DNA of 64,000 bases, from contig NZ_JAVZIN010000004.1 in the NCBI RefSeq assembly GCF_038871235.1, forward strand, positions 20,030 through 84,029. The letters are read 5' to 3'. This stretch comes from Candidatus Hadarchaeum sp. GTDB taxonomy: Archaea > Hadarchaeota > Hadarchaeia > Hadarchaeales > Hadarchaeaceae. Below, piece after piece: positions 3,855 through 56,886 of this stretch; the stretch's first letter is position 1; each line of letters begins with the position of its first letter. The notes beneath the pieces were generated by a model. The model saw only the letters and a program-made list of their open reading frames with translations. It made no database searches and had not been told where the DNA came from. A program made the translations under genes and the position numbers.

Positions 3855-3953
3855 GCCGGGGTAGCCAAGCCAGGTAAGGCGCCAGTCATAAGGGGCGAAA
3901 CTCGAGATCTGGTTCTCCTTCGGAGAGCGGGGGTTCAAATCCCCTCCCCGGCG
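3855..3953 (+). tRNA. Intron-containing type II tRNA, most consistent with tRNA-Ser(CGA)
   Basis: Acceptor GCCGGGG/CCCCGGC, T-arm GGGGG-TTCAAAT-CCCCT, long variable hairpin TCTCC-TTC-GGAGA, discriminator G73. Removing 14 nt (3887-3900, cataaggggcgaaa) gives anticodon loop C-U-CGA-G-A. TATA-like box near 3818-3830. Confidence 0.6.
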
Positions 3954-9560: not shown

Positions 9561-9716
9561 GGGGCCGTGGTGTAGCTTGGCTAGCACTCCAGCACTGTCT
9601 GGGCTAAAAGCAGGCTCCAGTGGACCGTCGTGGGTCTGCTGACGTAAGGATGATGACCCATTGGAGCGGTGCGATGAGACCTGCGAACCCGGGTTCAAAT
9701 CCTGGCGGCCCCACCA
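9561..9716 (+). tRNA. tRNA-Trp(CCA) with a long intron after position 37 (9621-9678) and an additional ~21-nt insertion between D-stem and anticodon stem (9588-9609); CCA encoded
   Basis: Acceptor GGGGCCG/CGGCCCC, discriminator A, then CCA. D-arm GUGU-AGCUUGGCUA-GCAC. Anticodon stem GCAGG(9610-14)/CCUGC(9680-84) with loop C-U-CCA-G. T-arm CCGGG-TTCAAAT-CCTGG. TATA-like box at 9529-9536. Confidence 0.7.
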
Positions 9717-9772: not shown

Positions 9773-11050
9773 GTGTTGAGGCATATTATGGGAGCGAGAA
9801 TATCGAGCTTGAAGGCAAGAAAAATATTAGACAGCCGGGGTAATCCCACCATTGAGGTAGTGGTCGGTATCCGCGATAATGGGGGAGATTTGTTCTTTGG
9901 TAGGGCAGCGGCACCGAGCGGGGCGAGCAAGGGCAGGCTTGAAGCGGTGGACTTTCCCGTAGGCGGCGTAGACAAGGCGCTGGAAAAAGTCGTTGAAATT
10001 GCACCCAAGTTGTCTGGGATCGATGCCTTTGATCAGGTTAAGGTTGATGAAACTCTTCGCGAGCTTGATGGGACACCAAATTTGTCAGTTCTAGGTGGCA
10101 ATACTACCGTGGCCATTTCCATGGCAGTGGCCAAGGCGGCTGCTTCGGCCAGAAAAATGCCGCTTTATCAGCATCTTGGCGGAAATGGAGGGTTTGAGCT
10201 TCCCTATCCTCTGGGGAATGTCATTGGTGGAGGAAAACATGCGGGAGGATATGCCCCGGACATCCAGGAATACCTAGTAATAGCTACCGGGGCGAGAAAG
10301 ACTTCAGAGGCCATTTTTATCAATGCTAGAGTTCACAAGAAAGTTGGCGAAATGCTCAGCGAGGCAAATAGCTCATTTACTCGGGGAAAGAGTGACGAAG
10401 GCGCTTGGTCACCCAATATTTGTAATGAGGGCGCACTTGAGTTTTTGGCTAGGGCCTGTGAGCTGGTCAGCGACGAGACCGGCGTTGAGGTGAGGCCAGC
10501 GTTAGATGTTGCGGCGAGCAGCTTCTATGATAGCGAGAAAGATCTATATGTTTACAAGCGAGAGGCAGTGACACGAGATCGGGGAGAGCAGCTCGATTTT
10601 ATTCTCGGCTTGATTGAAAAGTTTAAGCTCTTTTTCGTTGAGGATCCCCTTCACGAGGGAGACTTTGAGGGATTCGCCGAGCTGACAAAAAAGGTTGGAA
10701 ATGAATGTCTCATCTGTGGCGATGACATTTTTGTAACCAACGTCGAAAGGATTGAGATCGGGATCAGGTCCAAGGCCGCTAACGCGATCATCATCAAACC
10801 AAACCAGATTGGGACGCTGACCGATACCTTTAAAGCGGTAGAGCTGGCAAGGCGAAATAAATACGTGCCGGTAATCTCTCACCGCTCTGGGGAAACCACG
10901 GATGAGACGATTGCCCACCTTGCAGTGGCGTGGCATTGTCCGATGATAAAAACGGGTGTGGTTGGCGGTGAGAGAATCGCTAAGCTTAATGAACTAATCC
11001 GCATAGAAGAAGAATTGGAAAATAAAGCAAGGATGAGTAGATTGAGATGA
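9773..11050 (+). CDS. eno: Enolase
   Basis: [12 protein letters not shown]..., [18 protein letters not shown] motifs; alternative start at ATG 9788. Confidence 0.9.
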
Positions 11051-11676
11051 ATGAGGCAGAATTTGGCGAGGGAGCGGCAGGTCTGATAGAATTTGATGTC
11101 TACCTGTCGAGCGGAGTGCACATAGGTACTAGGCAGAAGACCGGAGCCATGTCACCCTTCATCTTCCGGGCTAGGCCTGATGGACTTTATGTTTTGGATA
11201 TAAGGAAGACGGATGAGCGCATAGCCGTGGCTGGAAAGTTCTTGGCAAGATTTAACAAGTCCAAGATCGTTGTCGCTGCTGCGAGACAGTATGGACAGCG
11301 GCCGGCGCAGCGTTTTTGTGAGGTCACTGGAGCCATACCGATGATTGGGAGATTCATCCCGGGGACCTTCACCAACACCCACTATAAGGGATACATGGAA
11401 CCCGAGGTATTGGTCATTGCTGACCCGATAGCGGATGAACAGCCGCTTCGGGAAGCGGCTCAGGTGGGTATTCCCGTGGTGGGGCTTTGTGATACCGATA
11501 ACGAAACAGCGGACGTTGACTTGGTGATTCCTACCAATAACAAGGGACGCAAGGCGCTGGCGTTGGTTTTTTGGTTACTCGCCAGGCAGGTTCTCAGGGA
11601 GAGAGGTGAACTTTTACCAGACCAGCCGTTCGGAGTCCAGGTTGAGGAGTTCGAAACAAAGGCTGGCGGTGAATAG
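11047..11676 (+). CDS. rps2: 30S ribosomal protein S2 (uS2)
   Basis: [41 protein letters not shown] matches the archaeal S2 core; the eno-rps2 linkage is a conserved archaeal arrangement. Confidence 0.85.
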
Positions 11677-16720: not shown

Positions 16721-18451
16721 TTGGCCCAGATTTTTCCCAAGAAACCTAAAGGGGGTAAATTGGTGGAAGAAATTAAAAGGACAGTGCTGAGGTGGACATT
16801 AGCCAACGCGACCGAGCATGGGGGAAAGGCTAGCTCCAAAGCAGTCATGGGTAAGATACTTGCCGAATTGCCGGGCTGGAAGTCGAGAATCGTAGAACTC
16901 TCGATCCTTGTCGATCAAATTGTTGATGAGGTTAACAGAATGAGTCCTGAGGAACAACAGTTTCAGATAAAGAAGGTTGGCCTCCCTGAGAGAAAGTCGG
17001 AGGAGAGGCGTGGACTGCCGGATCTGCCTAGTTTACAAGAGTACAAGACAATTGTGACTAGGTTTGCCCCTAACCCCAATGGTCCCTTGCATATCGGGCA
17101 CATCAGGGCGGCACTTCTCAGTCACGAATATGCCCGGCGTTATCAAGGAAAGTTCATCCTGAGATTTGAGGATACTAACCCTGAAAACGCGATGCTGGAA
17201 ATGTATGAATTCATAAAGCGTGATTTGAGATGGCTGGGTCTCAACTGGGATGAGGAATACTATCAGTCAGATCGCGTTGAAATCTACTACCACCACGCCG
17301 AACAGCTTATTAAAAGTGAAAAAGCCTACGTGTGCGATTGCGATGTCGAGATTTTTAGAAAGCTTCGTGATTCAGGTCAGCCGTGTCCCTGCCGTGGTCT
17401 TTCCGCTTCCGAGAATTTAATTAGATGGCAAAAAATGCTTGCCGGCGGTTATACGGAGGGAGGAGCCGTTGTTCGAATAAAAACAGATTTAAAACACCCC
17501 AATCCAGCGGTTCGTGATTGGCCAGCGTTGCGAATCGTCAAAGCCCCTCACCCGAGGGTCGGTAAGAAATATCCTGTTTGGCCCCTCTATAATTTTTCCG
17601 CAGGGATAGATGATCACCTTATGGAAGTGACTCATGTTATCCGGGGCAAGGAGCATGAGGTAAATGAAGAGCGCCAGCGGATTATGTATGAACATTTTGG
17701 ATGGAGATATCCGACCGCGGTTCAGTACGGTCGACTGTCGATGCCCGGCGTCGAACTGAGCAAAACTCAGACGATGGAAATGATCAGAAGTGGTCGGTTG
17801 TCTGGTTTTGACGATGTTAGGCTTGCGACCATAGCCGCTCTGCGCAGACGCGGGTTTCTGTCGGCCGCCATAAGGCAGATGATTTTTGACATTGGACTTA
17901 CCCCTGTTGATGCCTCCTTGAGTTGGGAAACTCTTTATGCGTACAACAGGAAAATTCTGGATCCAATCGCCGGTCGTTATTTCTTTGTGGCAAATCCAGT
18001 TAAATTGCTTGTTCGTGGTGGACCTAAGTTGAAGGAAGCCAGATTGCGCTTGCACCCGGGCAAGCCGGAGATGGGGGAACGCGTGCTTCCGCTGAGTTTT
18101 GAAAATAGCAGCTTAGTTTTTTACATCTCTAGAAGTGACGCTTCTGTTTTAAAAGTTGGAGATACCTTTAGGCTGAAAGACCTGATGAACGTTAAGCTTG
18201 AGAGCATGGACTCGGTGTTTGGGGCATCATTTCACAGCTTGGAAGTTATGGACGTGCCAAAGTTCCAATGGGTTTCTGGAGGAGCCGTTGTCCTCGAGGT
18301 GATTAAGCCAGATGCATCGGTGGAAACCGGGCTTGCTGAGCCTTCCGTGGCAGCTCTGAAGGTCGGCGATATCGTTCAGCTGGAGAGGTATGGTTTCGTT
18401 AGAATTGACTCAACGATACCGAAATTGACTGCCATATATGCGCACAGATGA
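16721..18451 (+). CDS. gltX: Glutamyl-tRNA synthetase (archaeal type)
   Basis: HIGH motif in RFAPNPNGPLHIGHIRAA, class I GluRS/GlnRS-like architecture, 576 aa. Confidence 0.85.
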   Translation: MAQIFPKKPKGGKLVEEIKRTVLRWTLANATEHGGKASSKAVMGKILAELPGWKSRIVELSILVDQIVDEVNRMSPEEQQFQIKKVGLPERKSEERRGLPDLPSLQEYKTIVTRFAPNPNGPLHIGHIRAALLSHEYARRYQGKFILRFEDTNPENAMLEMYEFIKRDLRWLGLNWDEEYYQSDRVEIYYHHAEQLIKSEKAYVCDCDVEIFRKLRDSGQPCPCRGLSASENLIRWQKMLAGGYTEGGAVVRIKTDLKHPNPAVRDWPALRIVKAPHPRVGKKYPVWPLYNFSAGIDDHLMEVTHVIRGKEHEVNEERQRIMYEHFGWRYPTAVQYGRLSMPGVELSKTQTMEMIRSGRLSGFDDVRLATIAALRRRGFLSAAIRQMIFDIGLTPVDASLSWETLYAYNRKILDPIAGRYFFVANPVKLLVRGGPKLKEARLRLHPGKPEMGERVLPLSFENSSLVFYISRSDASVLKVGDTFRLKDLMNVKLESMDSVFGASFHSLEVMDVPKFQWVSGGAVVLEVIKPDASVETGLAEPSVAALKVGDIVQLERYGFVRIDSTIPKLTAIYAHR

Positions 18452-18548
18452 GTGTTGAGCTGGGTTTTGGTCCGCTAAATTTTAAAAATCGGGATACAAC
18501 ACTCTTTTAACGGCAGCCTGCATAATAAAAATTACCAAAAACCGTTGA

Positions 18549-18567
18549 ATGATGAGGTCTAAACTGA
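18549..18567 (+). promoter_or_regulatory. K-turn/K-loop element (box C-like AUGAUGA + box D-like CUGA) in the rpl7ae 5' leader, likely an L7Ae autoregulatory site
   Basis: AAUGAUGA at 18548-18555 and CUGA at 18564-18567, 8 nt apart, directly upstream of ribosome-binding site GAAGGAGGTG (18566-18575) and GTG start 18582. Confidence 0.5.
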
Positions 18568-18581
18568 AGGAGGTGTTTGGA

Positions 18582-18953
18582 GTGGCCAAACCGATATATG
18601 TGCGCTTCGAGGTCCCGAAGGAGCTGGCGGATAGAGTATATGGGGCGGTAGAGGTCGCAAGGGATACAGGGAAGCTCAGAAAAGGGACCAATGAAGTTAC
18701 TAAAGCCATAGAACGCAAGCAGGCAAAGCTAGTTGTGATAGCTGAGGATGTTGAGCCAGCTGAAATAGTGGCCCATCTCGTTCCACTTTCTGAGGAAAAA
18801 GGAATTCCATATGTATACGTTCCGAGCAAGCGGGAGCTGGGTGCCGCCGCCGGTCTGGAAGTTGGTTCATCGGCTGTTGCCATAGTCGATGCCGGACAGG
18901 CGGCAAATGCGGTGAAGGACATAATCGAGAGCATCAAACAGCTTAAGAAGTGA
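18582..18953 (+). CDS. rpl7ae: 50S ribosomal protein L7Ae (eL8)
   Basis: [58 protein letters not shown]...[16 protein letters not shown] nearly canonical L7Ae. The track start (ATGATG at 18549) lies inside the box C motif; GTG 18582 is preceded by a strong Shine-Dalgarno sequence. Confidence 0.9.
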
Positions 18954-20127: not shown

Positions 20128-21930
20128 GTGTTTAAGATGCAGAAGCCCAGAGTCAGACAGCCGTTGATAGCGGTGCTGGGCCATGTCGACCACGGCAAAA
20201 CATCTTTGCTGGATGCCATCAGAGGAACCAGAGTTGCCGCTAGGGAAGCCGGTGCGATTACTCAGCACGTTGGAGCCAGCGAGATACCTATAGATGCAAT
20301 TAGGAAGATTTGCGGAAAACTTCTGGAGAGGCTTAAGATAGAGCTTACTCTGCCTGGTCTTCTTTTTATCGACACACCGGGTCACGAAGCTTTCACCAAT
20401 CTTCGCCGGAGAGGCGGCTCTCTTGCTGATCTCGCCACCCTTGTTATTGATATCAATGAGGGGTTTATGCCCCAGACGTTGGAATCTTTGACAATTTTAA
20501 GAACATACAAGACCCCCTTCATGGTAATCGCCAATAAGATAGATCTAATTCCTGGTTGGAAAGCGATTCCTCGTGCCTGTTTTTTGGAATCCTTTGCGAA
20601 ACAACGCCCCGAGGTTCAACGTACACTGGATGAAAAAGTTTACGAACTCGTTGGGAAGTTGCACGAGCTAGGATTTGAATCTGAGAGGTTCGATCGGGTC
20701 AGCGATTTTCGCAGGCAAGTTTCTATAGTTCCCGCTAGCGCCAAGACTGGTGAGGGCATTGCGGAGATTTTAACCATTTTATCCGGACTTGCACAGAGGT
20801 ATTTGGAGAAGGAGCTGATGGTTGAGGTGACCGGCCCTGGGCGAGGAACTGTTCTTGAAGTGAAGGAAGAGGTTGGGTTGGGTAAAACAATAGATGTGAT
20901 AATATACGACGGTGTGGTGGCAAAGGGTGATCTTTTTGCGGTGGGCGGTCTGGATAAGGTGATCACTTCCAAGGTCAGATGCCTTCTTCAACCCAAGCCT
21001 CTTGATGAAATCCGAGATCCAGAGGATAGGTTCAATCAGGTTGAAATGGTTTACGCCGCCGCCGGGGTCAAGATTGCCGCGCCGAATCTTGAGGGAGTAG
21101 TGGCTGGTGCGCCTTTTTTAGTGATTAAAGATATAGCGGCGGCGGAAAAACTGTGGCAGGAAATGCAGCAGGAGCTGGAGCGCGTCAGGATAATTTCCGA
21201 TGTAAATGGCGTGGTTTTAAAGGCCGATGCTTTGGGCTCTCTTGAAGCTCTAGAGGGCCAGCTAAAGGCAAAGGGAATACCGATTCGCAAAGCCGATGTC
21301 GGCGATGTTTCTCGGCGGGATGTTATTGAAGCAGCCACGGTTGGCAAGAGTGATCAGCTTCTGGCTGTGGTGTTGGCCTTTAACGTCAAGGTCTTGCCAG
21401 ACGCCGTCTCCGAAGCCGAACGCGAGGGTGTTCAGATACTCCGGGATAATGTGATCTACAGGTTGCTGGAACAGTACGAAAGTTGGGTGAAGAAAAAGAG
21501 TGAAGAAGTTAGGGCGAATCGCTTGCAGGGATTCGTCAGGCCTGGAAAAATCGTCATCAAACCCGGCTATGTTTTCAGGCGTAGCGATCCAGCCATAGTA
21601 GGAATCGATGTTTTAGGCGGCGTCATTAGGACAAAGGCTCCGTTGATGAATAAGGAGGGCAAGTCGATCGGGTCCATCCGTGAGCTGCAAAAGGACAAGA
21701 AACCTATTCAAGAAGCAAAGCTTGGCGATGAGCTGGCTGTCTCCATAGATGGGCCAATGATCGGGCGCCAAGTTCAAGAGGGAGATGTTTTATATACAGA
21801 TGTACCAAGAGACCATGTGCTCGCACTGAGGAGAGATCTGCGTGATCTCCTTTCGGGTGATGAGCTTTCGGTGCTTGATGAGATAATCGCCATCAAGCAG
21901 AAAACAGATCCAACCTATGGAGTGATGTGA
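20128..21930 (+). CDS. infB: Translation initiation factor aIF5B (IF2 homolog)
   Basis: GTPase motifs [24 protein letters not shown]; 600 aa. Confidence 0.9.
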   Translation: MFKMQKPRVRQPLIAVLGHVDHGKTSLLDAIRGTRVAAREAGAITQHVGASEIPIDAIRKICGKLLERLKIELTLPGLLFIDTPGHEAFTNLRRRGGSLADLATLVIDINEGFMPQTLESLTILRTYKTPFMVIANKIDLIPGWKAIPRACFLESFAKQRPEVQRTLDEKVYELVGKLHELGFESERFDRVSDFRRQVSIVPASAKTGEGIAEILTILSGLAQRYLEKELMVEVTGPGRGTVLEVKEEVGLGKTIDVIIYDGVVAKGDLFAVGGLDKVITSKVRCLLQPKPLDEIRDPEDRFNQVEMVYAAAGVKIAAPNLEGVVAGAPFLVIKDIAAAEKLWQEMQQELERVRIISDVNGVVLKADALGSLEALEGQLKAKGIPIRKADVGDVSRRDVIEAATVGKSDQLLAVVLAFNVKVLPDAVSEAEREGVQILRDNVIYRLLEQYESWVKKKSEEVRANRLQGFVRPGKIVIKPGYVFRRSDPAIVGIDVLGGVIRTKAPLMNKEGKSIGSIRELQKDKKPIQEAKLGDELAVSIDGPMIGRQVQEGDVLYTDVPRDHVLALRRDLRDLLSGDELSVLDEIIAIKQKTDPTYGVM

Positions 21931-27208: not shown

Positions 27209-28846
27209 TTACTCCAAATCGATTTCAAAGACAGAGACCGGATGTTCTAATTCGAAGCCGATGATTACCTCAGGATGCAGCTCCCCAACAACACCGATTT
27301 TTTTGCCCTCAGTGAGGAATTCTGCAACTCTGCCATCAATGAAGCTGGGGTGCGAAGAGGCTTTTACCTCCCATCTTTTTCCAAGTTCCCTGAGTACCGC
27401 TTCCGCGGCGGCTTTTATATAAGTAAACCCAAAGCCCTCGCCTGCAACTGCCGAGGCCGCTCTTCTCACATTTCTGGCCCCAGTTTCGGATTTTTCATCA
27501 AGCAACACCACATCACCGATCTCAAAAATTTTTTGTGGCAGCGGGTTTCTGCGGTTTTTCTTCAGTACCAACAACAAGGACGGAATCAAGGAATCCCTAA
27601 GTATCGTGTACTCTTCGGAAATAGGGTTGGCTATTTCTACGGCTTCCCCCTTCAACCTCATAAGGTCAAAGTTGACTTTGGGATTGGTCAGCGTGTAGGT
27701 CATCACTTCCATAAAATTCAATCCGGTGAGAACCCGCCTCGCTTTTTCGCTGATTTTTTCAATAGGTGCACGTTCTCCGATAGTTAAAACCTTCGGAAGC
27801 GTTGGCTCAAGCTTGTCGTATCCGTATCCTATTGCTATGTCCTCAATGATATCTATTTCGTGCATGATGTCGCAGCGGTAGGGCGGAATTAGTAGTCTCA
27901 GCTTGGCCCCGTTGATTTTTTCCACCCCGTAACGCATTGCCATCGCTAGTTTAGCGATCTGTTTTGAGTTGAGATCGATACCTATAGTTTTCTTCGCATT
28001 GCTGACGTTGAGGTTCAATTTGCTTGGCTTTAAGTTCGGGGTAGTGACCCGCCTCTTAGGATATTTTACCACAACGGTTTCTAGGGTAAATCCTCTTTCC
28101 CCCAATCCAGCCATAATTATCGTGAGTGCTTGGTTAACGGCTCGCTCGTCATGTCCGGTAACGTCGATAAAGAGTGAATCCGTTTTTTCAGTCACCCGCG
28201 TGTCCTCACTGTTGATTATTGGGGGCAGAGATAGCACCGTTCCTCGTCCGTCGATCAACAGCGGATATCTTGGCAGCCCCTGAAGCAAAGACCCGTATTC
28301 AATCCCTTTTGGATGCTCGTGAAGTATTTCCATAGGGGTAAGCTCGCGCCCGAAGTCAAGCGGCAAGAAGCGGATGCCTTCCGGTGTTGTGGTGGTGTAT
28401 ATCACATGAGGGGCGATGGTTTTGAGATCATAGATGCCGATAGATGCTTTTTCTCGTTTTCTGCCCAGCGATGCGTGCAGTTTTTCTTGAACCTGCATAA
28501 TTGAGGCGACAATGTCGTCTGTCATTTTTACGTTGCTAACGGCACCGGCGGCTATAAACGGTCGAATCGATTCAACGCTGGGGTCGACTTCAACGGTGAT
28601 GTTTGATGGCTTGGTTCTGTATCTTGGTAGGCCGGTTTCAATACGGAGAAATCCCTTAAGGACCCTAGCGACCCCCTCGCAGCTCAAGAGATCAGGACGA
28701 TTGTGGGCGATTTCTATTTTAATCTCGTCACCATTTGCTTCAGCTTCCATCCCCAGCATCCCCAGCCGCTCGCAAAGTCTGTCGATCTCAATAGTTTTAC
28801 CAAGCAGGCCGCAGAGATCACGGTAGCTGATGCTGATGGATGGCAC
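27209..28846 (-). CDS. pheT: Phenylalanyl-tRNA synthetase beta subunit
   Basis: Archaeal PheT architecture (545 aa from GTG 28846, (M)PSISISYRDLCGLLGK...); GTG overlaps the pheS stop; the track ORF extends 62 codons further, implausibly. Confidence 0.85.
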   Translation of the reverse strand: MPSISISYRDLCGLLGKTIEIDRLCERLGMLGMEAEANGDEIKIEIAHNRPDLLSCEGVARVLKGFLRIETGLPRYRTKPSNITVEVDPSVESIRPFIAAGAVSNVKMTDDIVASIMQVQEKLHASLGRKREKASIGIYDLKTIAPHVIYTTTTPEGIRFLPLDFGRELTPMEILHEHPKGIEYGSLLQGLPRYPLLIDGRGTVLSLPPIINSEDTRVTEKTDSLFIDVTGHDERAVNQALTIIMAGLGERGFTLETVVVKYPKRRVTTPNLKPSKLNLNVSNAKKTIGIDLNSKQIAKLAMAMRYGVEKINGAKLRLLIPPYRCDIMHEIDIIEDIAIGYGYDKLEPTLPKVLTIGERAPIEKISEKARRVLTGLNFMEVMTYTLTNPKVNFDLMRLKGEAVEIANPISEEYTILRDSLIPSLLLVLKKNRRNPLPQKIFEIGDVVLLDEKSETGARNVRRAASAVAGEGFGFTYIKAAAEAVLRELGKRWEVKASSHPSFIDGRVAEFLTEGKKIGVVGELHPEVIIGFELEHPVSVFEIDLE

Positions 28847-40958: not shown

Positions 40959-42008
40959 TCAGAGCTTGAACCTCAGGAATGCGGCAATTCCGCCCAGCGC
41001 CGTGAGCTGTTTTCCAGCATCGTGTTCCGTACTTATCACAATAACTTCGGACCTTGTTTTTCTGGCATTTTCAAGGATTTTTGAGATATCTTCTCGGTTT
41101 GATCTTAACAACTCGTCGGCAACTAGAAGCCTTTCGACCGCTCCGGCAGCGACCGCTCGCTCCACCTCATTCTTACCATAGGTTGCCAGTCCTTCCTTGG
41201 TAATCTCACCCATTAATCGGTCCATCAGCGAAGTCTCAAGTGAAAGCCGGTCTTCTTTTGATACAAGCTCGACTAATCCTCGTCGTACTATTTCATAGAG
41301 TCCGGCGCTCCCGCCAGAGCTGGCGTCTCCAAGCCTAATGGTCTTAGATAGGTCGGGAAAGTTATCCCGCAAAAAAGATGTAAAATTATCCTTTGTGAAT
41401 CCGGGCCCGGCCACTATTGTCGTTTTTATGTTTTCCTTGGAAGTAACGTCTTTAATGGCATCCGCTAAACGGTGGAAAAATTTTTTCTCATCGGCCTCGT
41501 ACTCAACTAAGTATCTTTTCCCTGAGCGAGGACGCGATATAGTCCCGATTTCATCTAATCCGTACTGTCTCACCACTGCTAGATCAGCAGTTGAGTCATC
41601 AAGAGCAACGAGCAAAACTCGAGGCCGGTTGCTAGCTCGAACCGCTTCCTGAATTCTTCGGAGGTCCTCAGGATTCCATTCCTTGGTGATGGTTAGAACC
41701 GAACCCGGTTCAAAACTGAAGGAATGGTGTTTTCCAACGTCAGGACCTTCCAGTATCTTCCCCAAAACGCGCAGGCGGTTGCTGTGCTTGTGAAATTCGA
41801 TGTTCTCCGCTTGAATCGAGATGGTGATCGGTCTTTTTTCCATCCTTTCAGGACGGATTTTATCACTCATCTCTTGTTCTCTTCGCCAAGTGACGGCTGT
41901 GATAATATCACTTGGGCAGATTAAATGTTGCAGGTGCCATAGGTCGTCCAAAGTTTCCAATGCTAGCTTGATTTTCCCGTGCTTCAAGTCCTTGTGGATG
42001 ATTTTCAA
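40959..42008 (-). CDS. pelA: Pelota (Dom34) mRNA surveillance factor
   Basis: MKIIHKDLKHGKIKLALETLDDLWHL N-domain and eRF1-like central and C domains, 349 aa. Confidence 0.8.
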   Translation of the reverse strand: MKIIHKDLKHGKIKLALETLDDLWHLQHLICPSDIITAVTWRREQEMSDKIRPERMEKRPITISIQAENIEFHKHSNRLRVLGKILEGPDVGKHHSFSFEPGSVLTITKEWNPEDLRRIQEAVRASNRPRVLLVALDDSTADLAVVRQYGLDEIGTISRPRSGKRYLVEYEADEKKFFHRLADAIKDVTSKENIKTTIVAGPGFTKDNFTSFLRDNFPDLSKTIRLGDASSGGSAGLYEIVRRGLVELVSKEDRLSLETSLMDRLMGEITKEGLATYGKNEVERAVAAGAVERLLVADELLRSNREDISKILENARKTRSEVIVISTEHDAGKQLTALGGIAAFLRFKL

Positions 42009-45764: not shown

Positions 45765-46163
45765 TTATCTCACTCTTTCTCTTTGCAGAAACTTTGCCAG
45801 CCCTTCCACGTCTTTCACACTTCTGCGCACCAGTGGCTTTAGCCTGTCTCTGAATTCAGATATTGGCTTAACACCAAGCCTTTTTGCATGTTTGATGATA
45901 AAACTTGCCAGTTCATCGCCAGCTTTGTCGAAATCGGTTAATATTACTATTTCCTTTGAGCCTGAAAGACCTTCAACGAAGTTCAGCAGGGAACCACCGT
46001 TTGAGATTTTGCGAACGCGTCCACTTATGCCCAGTGCACGCAAAGCTTTTTCATCATCCATACCTTCAACGATTATCGGTATACCATCTAAGGCTAACCT
46101 GTTCAGCTCAGAGAGCAGCTCATCAATCTGCTCAAGGACCTCTTCTGTTAGCAAGTTCATCAC
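45765..46163 (-). CDS. Small Toprim-domain protein (COG1658-like)
   Basis: IIVEGMDDEKALRALG...ILTDFDKAGDELA Toprim acidic motifs, 132 aa. Confidence 0.6.
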   Translation of the reverse strand: MMNLLTEEVLEQIDELLSELNRLALDGIPIIVEGMDDEKALRALGISGRVRKISNGGSLLNFVEGLSGSKEIVILTDFDKAGDELASFIIKHAKRLGVKPISEFRDRLKPLVRRSVKDVEGLAKFLQRERVR

Positions 46164-53598: not shown

Positions 53599-54627
53599 AT
53601 GGGAGTGCAGCTTGGCGATTTAGTTTCCCGGGAGAAGGTTGAACTGGAAAGCTTGAGCGGCAGGATAATTGCCATAGATGCCCTGAACTCCCTCTATCAA
53701 TTCCTTTCCATAATCAGGCAGCGCGACGGCGAGCTGTTGCGGGACTCGAGAGGCCGCATAACCTCACATCTTTCTGGGATCTTCTACAGGACGGCCAATT
53801 TTGTCGAGGCCGGGATCAGACCAGTTTATGTCTTTGATGGAAAGCCACCGGCCCTGAAGCGTCTGACGGTCGAGCAGCGCCAGCTGGTGAGGCTGGAGGC
53901 AGAAAGCGAGTGGAAAAAGGCGCTGGAAGAGGGAAGGATACAGGATGCCAGAAAGTTCGCCCAGAGAGCGGGCCGTTTAGACACCGCCATGATAAAGCAG
54001 ACGCAGGAGCTTTTGAGTTATATGGGGCTTCCTTGGGTGCAAGCTCCCGGTGAGGGTGAGGCTCAGGCGGCGCTCATGGTTCAACGTGGTGATGCTTGGG
54101 CAGCGGCAAGCCAGGATTTTGACAGTCTGCTCTTTGGTGCGCCAAGGCTGGTTCGGAACTTGGCCATCACGGGCAGGCGAAAGCTTCCAGGTAAGGATGC
54201 TTATACCGAGGTCTATCCTGAGATCATCGAGCTGGAAAAGGTCCTAGCGGAGCTTGGAATAACTCGGGAGCAGTTGGTCGACATTGGGATTTTGGTGGGG
54301 ACGGATTACAATGAAGGCATCAAGGGCATCGGACCTAAGAAAGCGCTGGAGCTGGTCAAAAAATATGGTTCGATGGTGGAGATTCTCAAGACTGAGCTGG
54401 GCAAAAAGTTTGAGGTTGACCCGCTTGAGGTCAGGGAAATTTTTCTAAGACCAGATGTTACTACCAACTATAGCTTGGTCTGGGGTGATCCCGATCCTGA
54501 GGCCATTAAAAAATTCCTCTGTGATGAATATGATTTTTCTGAGGAGAGGGTGCGGTCGGGAATAGATAAGTTGACTAAGGGCAAGTTGGAGCGGGGACAG
54601 GCCAAGCTGGAGAAGTGGTTTAGCTAG
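53599..54627 (+). CDS. fen: Flap endonuclease 1
   Basis: N-terminal MGVQLGDLV...IAIDALNSLYQF, I-domain GEGEAQAA..., PCNA-binding C-terminus. Confidence 0.9.
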   Translation: MGVQLGDLVSREKVELESLSGRIIAIDALNSLYQFLSIIRQRDGELLRDSRGRITSHLSGIFYRTANFVEAGIRPVYVFDGKPPALKRLTVEQRQLVRLEAESEWKKALEEGRIQDARKFAQRAGRLDTAMIKQTQELLSYMGLPWVQAPGEGEAQAALMVQRGDAWAAASQDFDSLLFGAPRLVRNLAITGRRKLPGKDAYTEVYPEIIELEKVLAELGITREQLVDIGILVGTDYNEGIKGIGPKKALELVKKYGSMVEILKTELGKKFEVDPLEVREIFLRPDVTTNYSLVWGDPDPEAIKKFLCDEYDFSEERVRSGIDKLTKGKLERGQAKLEKWFS

Positions 54628-55827: not shown

Positions 55828-56886
55828 GTGAAATTGATGAAAAAAAGGCTTGGTTTTTTTAACAAGAGGTCGATCTCAGTTTTCATACTTTTGTGTTTGC
55901 TGACAGTAATAGCGGCTTTTTTGTTGTTGCGGGAAAACTTGGACTCGATGCTGTGGGCCCTATACCGGGCTAATCTTTTTTTCCTGTTACTGGCGGTTTT
56001 CACGTATTTATTCGGATTGTTGTTTTGGTCTTTGCGTTGGCGTCTGACTCTCGCTACGTCAGGGTACATAGTTCCGATCAGGAGCATCTATGTCATCATT
56101 TTGGGCGGAATTTTCATAAACAACATAACGCCTTTCACCTACGCAGGCGGAGATCCGATTGCTCGGGCTTATATTCTTAGAAGAACCCAAAATGTGCCTT
56201 ATTCAAGCGGCTTTGCCACGATTCTGTCGGAATACATCATGGACTTGCCGGTATATGTTTCGCTGTTGATCTTCGGATTTTTAATTTCCCTGAAACAGTT
56301 TGATCTTTGGTATGGGATTTTCGTTTTTCTAGTCTGGCTGTTTTTTTTAGTTGGATGGAGCGTTTTCTTCTTCCATGTGTTATCAAGTGCCACAGGTGCC
56401 AAGCGGATAGCTAGGGTGACCTCAAAACTGGCGAAGATCTTTCATCGCAAAGTGAAAAAGGCGGGATTGGAGCGCAGCATAAAGAGGTTCTATCGGAGTT
56501 CCGAGGAAATCATAAAGGACGGTAGAACGATCTTTGGCATCACTGTTCTTACTGTCACCATCATAGCATTGGCCATTTCTAGGTTATACTTCATCTTCCA
56601 GGCTTTTGGCTACATGCCTTCTCTCCCGATGTTGTTCTTTGCCTTGACCCTTCCCGCGCTTGTGGGATTGATACCCGTGCTCCCTGGGGGATTGGGCACA
56701 GTGGATGCCACGATTTTGTCCGTTTTCCTTCTTTTCGGTGTCCCGCTTCAAGTGGCAATAAGCGCCACGTTGATCGAGAGGGCGATAACCCTTGTTTTCA
56801 GCACAATATTGGGGGCAGGTGCAATTTCCTATTTAGGGATAAAGCAGGGCAATGCTAGAATATCAAGAGCAAAACGGCCGCGATGA
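55828..56886 (+). CDS. Flippase-like membrane protein (UPF0104 / lysyl-phosphatidylglycerol synthase TM-domain family)
   Basis: Eight or more TM helices, positively charged loops, family-typical GG...P and GxxD patterns; heads a glycosyltransferase locus. Confidence 0.5.
   Translation: MKLMKKRLGFFNKRSISVFILLCLLTVIAAFLLLRENLDSMLWALYRANLFFLLLAVFTYLFGLLFWSLRWRLTLATSGYIVPIRSIYVIILGGIFINNITPFTYAGGDPIARAYILRRTQNVPYSSGFATILSEYIMDLPVYVSLLIFGFLISLKQFDLWYGIFVFLVWLFFLVGWSVFFFHVLSSATGAKRIARVTSKLAKIFHRKVKKAGLERSIKRFYRSSEEIIKDGRTIFGITVLTVTIIALAISRLYFIFQAFGYMPSLPMLFFALTLPALVGLIPVLPGGLGTVDATILSVFLLFGVPLQVAISATLIERAITLVFSTILGAGAISYLGIKQGNARISRAKRPR

Follow-up and report, generated by a model that had tools for sequence, protein, structure and literature searches.

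In the 64,000-nucleotide (nt) stretch of Candidatus Hadarchaeum sp. DNA analysed here (contig NZ_JAVZIN010000004.1; hereafter the window), the rpl7ae gene for the ribosomal protein L7Ae is located downstream of gltX and upstream of rps28e (S28e), rpl24e (L24e), ndk and the aIF5B gene. The open reading frame (ORF) starting at the GUG codon 18582 was identified as L7Ae by a match to Pfam family PF01248 (5e-31). Its residues 1–123 align with residues 1–123 of Pyrococcus L7Ae (E = 2e-49), starting with the N-terminal residues MAKP, and a 12-residue RNA-recognition stretch is conserved. The nearest relatives of the protein come from Hadarchaeota metagenome-assembled genomes (92–93% identity); to our knowledge, this phylum has no cultured representatives. 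The element under study (18535–18580) lies directly 5' of the l7ae start codon and overlaps the Shine–Dalgarno (SD) sequence at 18569–18575, with the GUG at 18582. With a probability of roughly 85%, judged from sequence comparison, the segment 18534–18584 is the 5' leader of the rpl7ae mRNA and belongs to the established family of leaders whose kink-turn allows L7Ae to regulate its own synthesis.

Nucleotides of the element are designated by the last two digits of their window positions (G51 = 18551, G47 = 18547). From 5' to 3', the window reads AACCGUUG AAUGAUGA GGUCUAAA CUGA AGGAGGUG UUUGGA GUG GCC AAA CCG, and the longer stretch around the element reads AUUACCAAAAACCGUUGAAUGAUGAGGUCUAAACUGAAGGAGGUGUUUGGAGUGGCCAAACCG. 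A preliminary description of this DNA had proposed that the l7ae leader contains a kink-turn through which bound L7Ae feeds back on translation, with AAUGAUGA (18548–18555) and CUGA (18564–18567) as its two halves. Both motifs are present, separated by exactly 8 nt (18556–18563), just 5' of the SD (GGAGGUG) and the GUG start (18582–18584). The central claim of a feedback kink-turn is supported by published systems and by the signature that the window shares with them, as described below, and the pairing of the two halves had to be redrawn.

The leader was compared with those of 80 l7ae loci, which were obtained by scanning one genome per species. Thirty-two of the loci are from Hadarchaeota, and the remainder are from Thermoplasmata/Methanomassiliicoccales, Methanocellales, Bathyarchaeia and DPANN lineages. 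A common arrangement, TGA-NT-GAT-GA-(hairpin)-GA-NN-GA-GG, directly precedes the start codon in 51 of the 81 leaders (80 loci and the window; 49 distinct cores) and is found in Hadarchaeota, Thermoplasmata/Methanomassiliicoccales and Methanocellales. In the matching leaders, the distance from the non-bulged-strand GA to the SD is fixed at 0, and 6–9 nt separate the SD from the start codon. Lineages vary in the sequence and length of the hairpin that connects GAUGA to GA, which uses stems of 3–9 base pairs (bp), such as GGU...ACC, AGUUC...GAACU, CGCCC...GGGCG, AGCCCCUUC...GAAGGGGUU and CGAUGU...ACAUCG.

The register of the first kink-turn (Kt-1) was derived from an anchored alignment (A1) in which the apical part of the hairpin was trimmed. 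A1 comprises 57 distinct leaders, of which 46 came from the scan and 11 were taken from the supplement of Daume et al. In A1, position 4b:4n is paired in 57/57 leaders (GC 49, UA 4, AU 2 and GU 2), and position 5b:5n is paired in 48/57 (UA 17, GC 16, AU 6, CG 5 and UG 4). Position 3b:3n is mixed, as is usual for kink-turns. Overall pairing of the non-canonical (NC) helix is 82.5%, and compensatory changes are numerous. The covariation score of the whole structure is 0.302, compared with 0.186 for shuffled alignments (0 of 500 reach 0.302) and a maximum of 0.206 for slid registers. Because the covarying stem starts right after GAUGA and ends right before GA, the register of Kt-1 is fixed. The 3-nt GAU bulge is followed in the sequence by tandem G•A and A•G pairs, whose sheared geometry is predicted. 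In this register, the kink-turn is embedded in a hairpin, with the NC hairpin (56–58/63–65), which carries compensatory changes across the 57 leaders, on one side and a closing helix (35–43/72–80) on the other. The comparative set provides covariation-based support for the hairpin register; the published studies considered here had identified such leaders by manual inspection.

A covariance model (R1) was built from a seed of 29 Hadarchaeota leaders that includes the window. In a search of both strands of the window (128 kb), R1 yields a single strong match, at 18534–18584 (66 bits), and the next best match has E = 0.14. In the 50 loci outside the seed (248 kb), 22 matches with E < 0.05 were obtained, every one of which ends at the l7ae start codon.

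Leaders of this kind have been characterized in other archaea. L7Ae of Sulfolobus acidocaldarius binds a kink-turn in its own 5' untranslated region (UTR), as established by RNA immunoprecipitation sequencing, electrophoretic mobility shift and reporter assays (PMC5539422, Daume 2017), in line with the self-repression that the preliminary description cites for Sulfolobus. In the S. acidocaldarius kink-turn, which is positioned next to the SD, a GAU bulge is combined with two G•A pairs and one short stem; repression was observed for 6 of 8 other archaeal UTRs tested, and candidate strands were found by manual inspection in most of 121 archaeal species (PMC5539422). For Archaeoglobus fulgidus, a crystal structure, Förster resonance energy transfer and in-line probing data are available (PMC6298567, Huang, Ashraf & Lilley 2019). 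The A. fulgidus RNA is unfolded without protein and forms a standard kink-turn with L7Ae; its SD resides in the kink-turn hairpin and is then protected and occluded (PMC6298567). The leader sequences are gagCCGAUGAAUGAUGAuuugauGAAGGAGGug in A. fulgidus (supplementary primers and alignment of Daume et al., PMC5539422) and aCCUAUGAUUGAUGA-hairpin-GAAGGAGa in Methanosarcina acetivorans (Daume supplement, PMC5539422), and those of Methanocella, Methanosaeta and Methanomicrobiales are similar (Daume supplement, PMC5539422).

The window shares CC-NRU-GA-NU-GAU-GA ... GA-AGGAGG with the leaders tested from A. fulgidus (AF0764) and M. acetivorans (MA1521), and the signature recurs in Methanocella, Methanosaeta and Methanomicrobiales; the sequence of the window therefore places it in the l7ae leader kink-turn family. 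By analogy, L7Ae would bind the Hadarchaeota leader and repress its translation. The AF0764 element (gagCC-GAU-GA-AU-GAU-GA...GA-AGGAGGUG) likewise directly precedes the l7ae SD and contains a GAU bulge and tandem G•A pairs; its proposed logic, in which an RNA that is unstructured alone is locked by L7Ae into an SD-occluding hairpin, may apply to the window by analogy. Unlike the window, which has a 3-bp hairpin between the two strands, AF0764 has 6 nt (UUUGAU). The autoregulatory kink-turn of the S. acidocaldarius saci_1520 leader likewise combines a GAU bulge and two G•A pairs with a short stem and a minimal, one-pair canonical (C) helix by the SD, but its polarity differs: the non-bulged strand comes first and the SD flanks the 5' side of the bulge. 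Moreover, its leader sequence is conserved only within Sulfolobales (PMC5539422). A more distant parallel is the yeast L30e/RPL30 system, in which a ribosomal protein of the L7Ae family uses a kink-turn in the transcript that encodes it to repress its own expression (as cited in PMC6298567); that system is eukaryotic, also controls splicing and is unrelated in sequence.

The part of the element upstream of GAUGA was analysed by repeating the search without a constraint 5' of GAUGA, which gave 44 distinct leaders. A UGA is located exactly 2 nt 5' of GAUGA in 41/44 leaders (U in 43/44, G in 44/44 and A in 41/44), corresponding to 18546–18548 in the window. The conserved U (position L3) is preceded by a purine at L2 in 41/44 leaders and by a variable L1; the window has U at L2. 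Farther 5', the two C residues that flank a proposed 3-nt bulge are present in 39/44 and 35/44 leaders. On the opposite strand, the GA is always followed by 2 nt and then by the GA-GG of the SD. When the CC is paired with the SD GG, a 3-nt bulge gives at least two consecutive pairs in 44/49 leaders, compared with a maximum of 17/49 for other bulge sizes. At the level of sequence, the layout is that of a double module: one strand carries CC|NRU|GA|NU|GAU|GA, and the opposite strand carries GA|NN|GA|GG.

The two halves are joined by a connector. Its U-A pair is found in 56/57 leaders, in which the U is fixed by the selection pattern and the A (56/57) is not. The other connector position is mostly A·G and also C-G (7), U·G (6), G·U (3) or A-U (1). 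Below the upstream UGA, the C helix of the window consists of C35-G80, C36-G79, A37-U78, A38-U77, A39-U76, A41-U74, C42-G73 and C43-G72, interrupted by the A40×G75 mismatch. The first three pairs of this helix are CG 48/UG 7, CG 46/UG 4 and AU 24/GU 14 in the 57 leaders. The defining features of a second kink-turn (Kt-2) are present, at the level of sequence only, and its NC helix would be the C helix of Kt-1.

The lower part of the element is read most simply as Kt-2, sharing a four-position helix with Kt-1; we regard this reading as a real possibility that falls a little short of even odds. A double kink-turn would then also occur, at the same tentative grade, in Thermoplasmata, Methanocellales, Methanosarcinales, Methanomicrobiales and Archaeoglobus besides Hadarchaeota; the SD purines (GA-AG-GA-GG) would form the non-bulged strand of both turns, and two L7Ae molecules would clamp the ribosome-binding site (RBS). 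A precedent is provided by the double K-turn of helix P12 in euryarchaeal RNase P RNA, which binds two copies of L7Ae (PMC5499556, Lai et al. 2017). Like P12, the putative window module would contain two kink-turns with both bulges on one strand and would have L7Ae as its ligand, and a shared helix would act as the NC helix of the first turn and the C helix of the second. The shared helix contains 3 bp in P12 and four positions in the window (G47•A71, A48•G70, A49·G69 and U50-A68). P12 also has an architectural role and demonstrated two-protein occupancy, whereas the putative window module would regulate translation. In A. fulgidus, a Kt mutant still showed 'a different mode of binding' (PMC6298567), which a second site would presumably explain. 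A full-text search of the open-access literature found no paper on a double kink-turn in an l7ae leader.

Several points weigh against Kt-2 and keep the double reading tentative. The conservation of the GA within GGAGG is explained by SD function alone, and the C helix is only ~50% paired across lineages past its first three pairs. The leaders are also phylogenetically related. Furthermore, Kt-2 has C:G at -1b:-1n and G at 3n, and by the published rules (PMC6298567) such a kink-turn folds without protein once its helix forms, so that it fits a protein-dependent switch less neatly.

The strongest alternative, possible at odds somewhat longer than those of the double module, is that Kt-1 alone forms and binds one L7Ae, with the upstream UGA and CC serving as an irregular extension of the C helix or as a spare bulged strand. 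Both published studies describe one kink-turn per leader (PMC5539422, PMC6298567), and the one-pair C helix has a precedent in S. acidocaldarius (PMC5539422). Competition of a spare strand for G66-A67 would correspond to the published A. fulgidus drawing, where the first GAUGA was crystallised paired with the GA 5' of the SD (PMC6298567), with A:U at 3b:3n and C:A at -1b:-1n. This pairing is unsupported for the window and most relatives: only 30% pairing is reached when the 57 leaders are read in the A. fulgidus-type register, its position 4b:4n is unpaired in 53/57, and the covarying hairpin would have to loop out. The published register was accordingly rejected as a general model of the family. 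The strict 2-nt spacing on both strands, the optimum at a 3-nt bulge and the CC facing the SD GG fit a second kink-turn, and RNase P P12 is a documented case of a double kink-turn that binds two copies of L7Ae (PMC5499556). Moreover, one Hadarchaeota clade (L010, L011, L016 and L019) carries GAUGG or AAUGG in place of GAUGA and has lost the essential A2b of Kt-1, yet it keeps the upstream UGA, the CC and the hairpin.

Other lineages display simpler or additional structures. In leaders with a single GAUGA (Bathyarchaeia, Micrarchaeota and L023/L025), the GAUGA pairs with the GA of the SD. Fourteen Bathyarchaeia leaders are very short and consist of a single GCC-GAU-GA-GAGU-GA-GGC unit, in which a 4-nt loop replaces the NC helix and the non-bulged GA is that of the SD (GAGG); this unit is a minimal form of the element. 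Twelve Thermoplasmata/Methanomassiliicoccales leaders contain a conserved 5' hairpin, GCUCUU...AAGAGC, ~60–40 nt before the start codon of l7ae. Of the two C residues proposed to pair with the SD GG, one is overlapped by this hairpin, which may compete as an anti-sequestering structure or stack coaxially.

The preliminary description drew the kink-turn as a box C/D kink-turn or K-loop, in which G51•A67, A52•G66 and U53•U65 are followed by G54-C64 and an 8-nt loop. Its two consensus boxes are indeed present, and the element resembles the box C/D small RNA (sRNA) kink-turn in its RUGAUGA-like bulged strand, sheared G•A pairs and L7Ae as the binder. G54-C64 is also compatible with the alignment (A1 pair 23:31 is GC in 49/57 and GU in 4/57 leaders). 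The pairs that follow, however, are unpaired in 45/57 and 48/57 leaders, the register is 43% paired, and its covariation is no better than that of shuffles. The stems of 3–9 bp that run from directly after GAUGA to directly before GA fix the other register, shifted by 3 nt. The box C/box D pairing is not the conserved one: on the bulged strand, the G•A pairs involve the second GA of GAUGA (G54-A55), which follows the GAU bulge. When the leaders were aligned, the GAUGA strand, the invariant non-bulged GA and their position proved conserved but the CUGA box did not: the GA is preceded by CU in 20/44 leaders only, by CC in 13 and by CG in 4, and neither the U•U pair nor box D is conserved. The window also lacks a C'/D' pair and a guide region. 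Given the failed register and the poorly conserved CU, CUGA is made up of two hairpin nucleotides (C64-U65, from the 3' strand) and the non-bulged GA, and the box C/D drawing is very unlikely. The conserved upstream UGA and the supply of a GA by the SD itself had been missed in that description.

A chance occurrence of GA-rich motifs beside a strong SD, with no regulatory role, was weighed against the abundance of the motifs in the window. TGANTGATGA is found once (0.76 expected) and GATGA-N6-36-GANNGAGG twice (1.7 expected). TGATGA-N4-14-CTGA is found 8 times, compared with 1.8 expected from dinucleotide shuffles (0/100 reach 8), and the 7 occurrences outside the leader all lie within long ORFs. 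Sites elsewhere include 21536–21559 (-), 27688–27705 (-), 41584–41601 (-), 46103–46125 (-), 54522–54542 (+) and 56078–56098 (-); the excess inside ORFs may reflect codon composition or mRNA kink-turns like those of Daume et al. in Sulfolobus. A second GATGA...GA-NN-GAGG match, at 11032–11056 (+), is found where the enolase gene ends and overlaps the rps2 (S2) start codon. The site is the junction of enolase and rps2 and not of nop5 and fibrillarin, and the match agrees with the chance expectation of 1.7.

Some of these results count against membership in the regulatory family. The motif by itself occurs at chance frequency, and because the leaders are phylogenetically related, there are fewer independent events than their counts suggest. 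A search of 18300–18800 with Rfam at E ≤ 10 has nothing at 18520–18590; the sole match listed, to sR3, lies inside gltX (18328–18361) and is sub-threshold (12.9 bits against a gathering score of 41). At gathering thresholds, Rfam matches two tRNAs in the whole window and nothing else. RNAalifold applied to 29 Hadarchaeota leaders gave no meaningful consensus helix; because nearest-neighbour energies do not model G•A kink-turns, this null is read as neither for nor against the model, although it agrees with an RNA that is unfolded in the absence of protein. Finally, if a second AT-rich stretch at 18520–18533 were the real TATA box, the transcription start site (TSS) would fall inside the element. 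Since the motif alone is uninformative, significance must come from position and conservation, and it does. Several archaeal orders have the same arrangement at the same place before l7ae, and their hairpins show compensatory changes. In the window and the 50 loci outside the seed, R1 matches l7ae leaders only. Binding of L7Ae and repression of translation have been demonstrated for leaders that carry this signature (PMC5539422, PMC6298567). An origin by chance is highly improbable.

The AT-rich stretch at 18520–18533 is not conserved in relatives. A predicted promoter farther upstream (Table 1) contains an ACAACAG-TTTTTATC-like block, which most Hadarchaeota relatives have 41–47 nt before the anchor G (G18547 in the window). 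Counting 30 nt from the start of the TATA-like element, the usual spacing in archaeal promoters, leads to a point 11–17 nt before the anchor G in the relatives; in the window, this distance is 12 nt. The conserved TATA-like element is thus predicted to place the TSS at ~18535, upstream of the whole element. An 8-bp complementarity connects the predicted TATA region (18506–18513) with the bulged strand (18542–18549; UUUAACGG/CCGUUGAA). It is probably fortuitous and is absent in leader L002. The corresponding hairpin, the minimum free energy (MFE) structure of 18505–18600, was rejected as part of the element: it overlaps the predicted TATA, extends upstream of the predicted TSS and is lost in L002.

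The two AUG codons at 18549–18554 are in frame with the gene, and the ORF is open from 18549, which would add an 11-residue N-terminal extension to L7Ae. These codons are open only in 10 Hadarchaeota leaders of the same in-frame length, including some of the closest relatives of the window. Of 33 Hadarchaeota relatives, 16 have them in another frame than the gene and 5 have an intervening stop codon. The hairpin length varies by non-multiples of 3. The consensus SD lies 6 nt before GUG 18582, and the protein from 18582 aligns over residues 1–123 with solved L7Ae proteins that start with MAKP. The preliminary description was therefore right to refuse the ATGATG as a start, the extension is scarcely credible, and the gene start is corrected to GUG 18582 from ATG 18549. 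A box C/D sRNA gene or fragment between gltX and rpl7ae, suggested by the C-like and D-like boxes, has a negligible probability, as the 8 nt between the boxes is too short for a guide, a second box pair is absent, Rfam has no match at the position even at E ≤ 10 and the element overlaps the l7ae SD.

A C-stem, tandem G•A pairs and a 3-nt bulge, as anticipated in the preliminary description, can be drawn in the sequence, although not in the box C/D register. The C helix is the MFE structure of 18534–18590 (-6.6 kcal/mol at 37 °C and -1.4 kcal/mol at 60 °C), and nothing is left at 80 °C. The fold of 18505–18600 has a z-score of +1.28 relative to shuffles. The RNA is thus predicted to be weakly structured without protein, matching the published requirement of protein-dependent folding. 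In the model, the SD nucleotides G69–U74 are all paired (in the connector, the G•A pairs and the C helix), which would occlude the RBS.

A mechanism can be proposed from these features. Transcription would begin at ~18535, and the leader would fold into one hairpin. The apical part of this hairpin would be Kt-1, a standard kink-turn in which the bulge G51-A52-U53 adjoins a C helix of a single pair (U50-A68). In the part below Kt-1, behind a 3-nt bulge, the conserved U46-G47-A48 would face G70-A71 of the SD, and the pairing of 18535–18543 with 18572–18580 would close the structure. The free leader would be only marginally folded, and the SD and GUG would consequently be accessible, allowing L7Ae to be translated. 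Free L7Ae in excess over its rRNA and sRNA sites would then bind the kink-turn or kink-turns and lock the hairpin, burying the SD (G69–U74) and lowering l7ae initiation; the downstream rps28e and rpl24e may or may not be affected as well.

Table 1. Features of the rpl7ae leader and gene in window coordinates; structural and promoter assignments are predictions
Feature	Position	Strand	Basis
Predicted archaeal promoter	18494–18512	+	Conserved ACAACAG-like block (TFB recognition element side) and TATA-like TTTTAACG at 18505–18512
Predicted TSS at ~18535, leader of ~47 nt	18532–18538	+	TATA start + 30; first nucleotide of the helix
C helix, bulged-strand side, CCAAAAACC	18535–18543	+	Pairs with 18572–18580 at 8/9 positions (A40×G75 mismatch)
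Proposed Kt-2 bulge, 3 nt, G44 U45 U46	18544–18546	+	Unconstrained alignment
Putative Kt-2 bulged-strand G47, A48	18547–18548	+	G 44/44, A 41/44; inferred pairs with A71 and G70
Connector, A49·G69 and U50-A68	18549–18550	+	Remainder of the putative Kt-2 NC helix, equal to the Kt-1 C helix
Kt-1 bulge, 3 nt, G51-A52-U53	18551–18553	+	GAU as in published l7ae leader kink-turns; conserved here
Kt-1 bulged-strand G•A nucleotides	18554–18555	+	G54•A67 and A55•G66; register from the covarying hairpin
Kt-1 NC-helix hairpin	18556–18565	+	G56·U65, G57-C64, U58-A63, loop CUAA; A1 covariation
Kt-1 non-bulged-strand GA (G66, A67)	18566–18567	+	Invariant GA directly 5' of the SD in all matching leaders
SD, GGAGGUG	18569–18575	+	Read from the sequence; G70-A71 = putative Kt-2 non-bulged GA; G72–U74 in the C helix
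C helix, non-bulged-strand side, GGUGUUUGG	18572–18580	+	Alignment pairing and MFE fold
rpl7ae coding sequence (regulator and regulated gene)	18582–18953	+	GUG start, 123 residues; Pfam and Pyrococcus alignment

Elsewhere in the window, several tRNA-like features were observed. A tRNA-like gene with one or more long inserts at 9561–9716 (+) has the acceptor strands GGGGCCG/CGGCCCC followed by A-CCA, a T arm (CCGGGUUCAAAUCCUGG) and an anticodon-loop-like stretch, CUCCAG (9614–9619), which suggests Trp-CCA. Its insert contains box C/D-like motifs (CUGA at 9639–9642, AUGAUGA at 9649–9655 and CGAUGAG at 9671–9677), and we presume that the gene resembles the euryarchaeal tRNA-Trp whose intron encodes a C/D guide. 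ARAGORN did not call it, nor any tRNA anywhere in the window, and Rfam gave only weak sub-threshold matches at 9561–9716. The two Rfam tRNA matches, at 3855–3953 (+) and 34741–34859 (+), are 99 and 119 nt long and therefore probably contain introns.

The element is very probably a new Hadarchaeota example of a known switch, and its second half is the point of real interest. L7Ae/kink-turn pairs are widely used as synthetic translational switches, and a natural two-site version, if real, could be of practical interest for their design. If the double kink-turn is correct, it would be the second natural double K-turn module, so far found only in RNase P RNA, would answer the call of Lai et al. 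(2017) for further RNAs with this module and would revise the A. fulgidus drawing. The structural model of the leader would also change, in that the SD would itself be the protein-bound strand, and cooperative binding of two proteins could sharpen the response. For Hadarchaeota, the comparison extends to this phylum the known and apparently ancient feedback loop in which L7Ae represses its own mRNA by means of a kink-turn.

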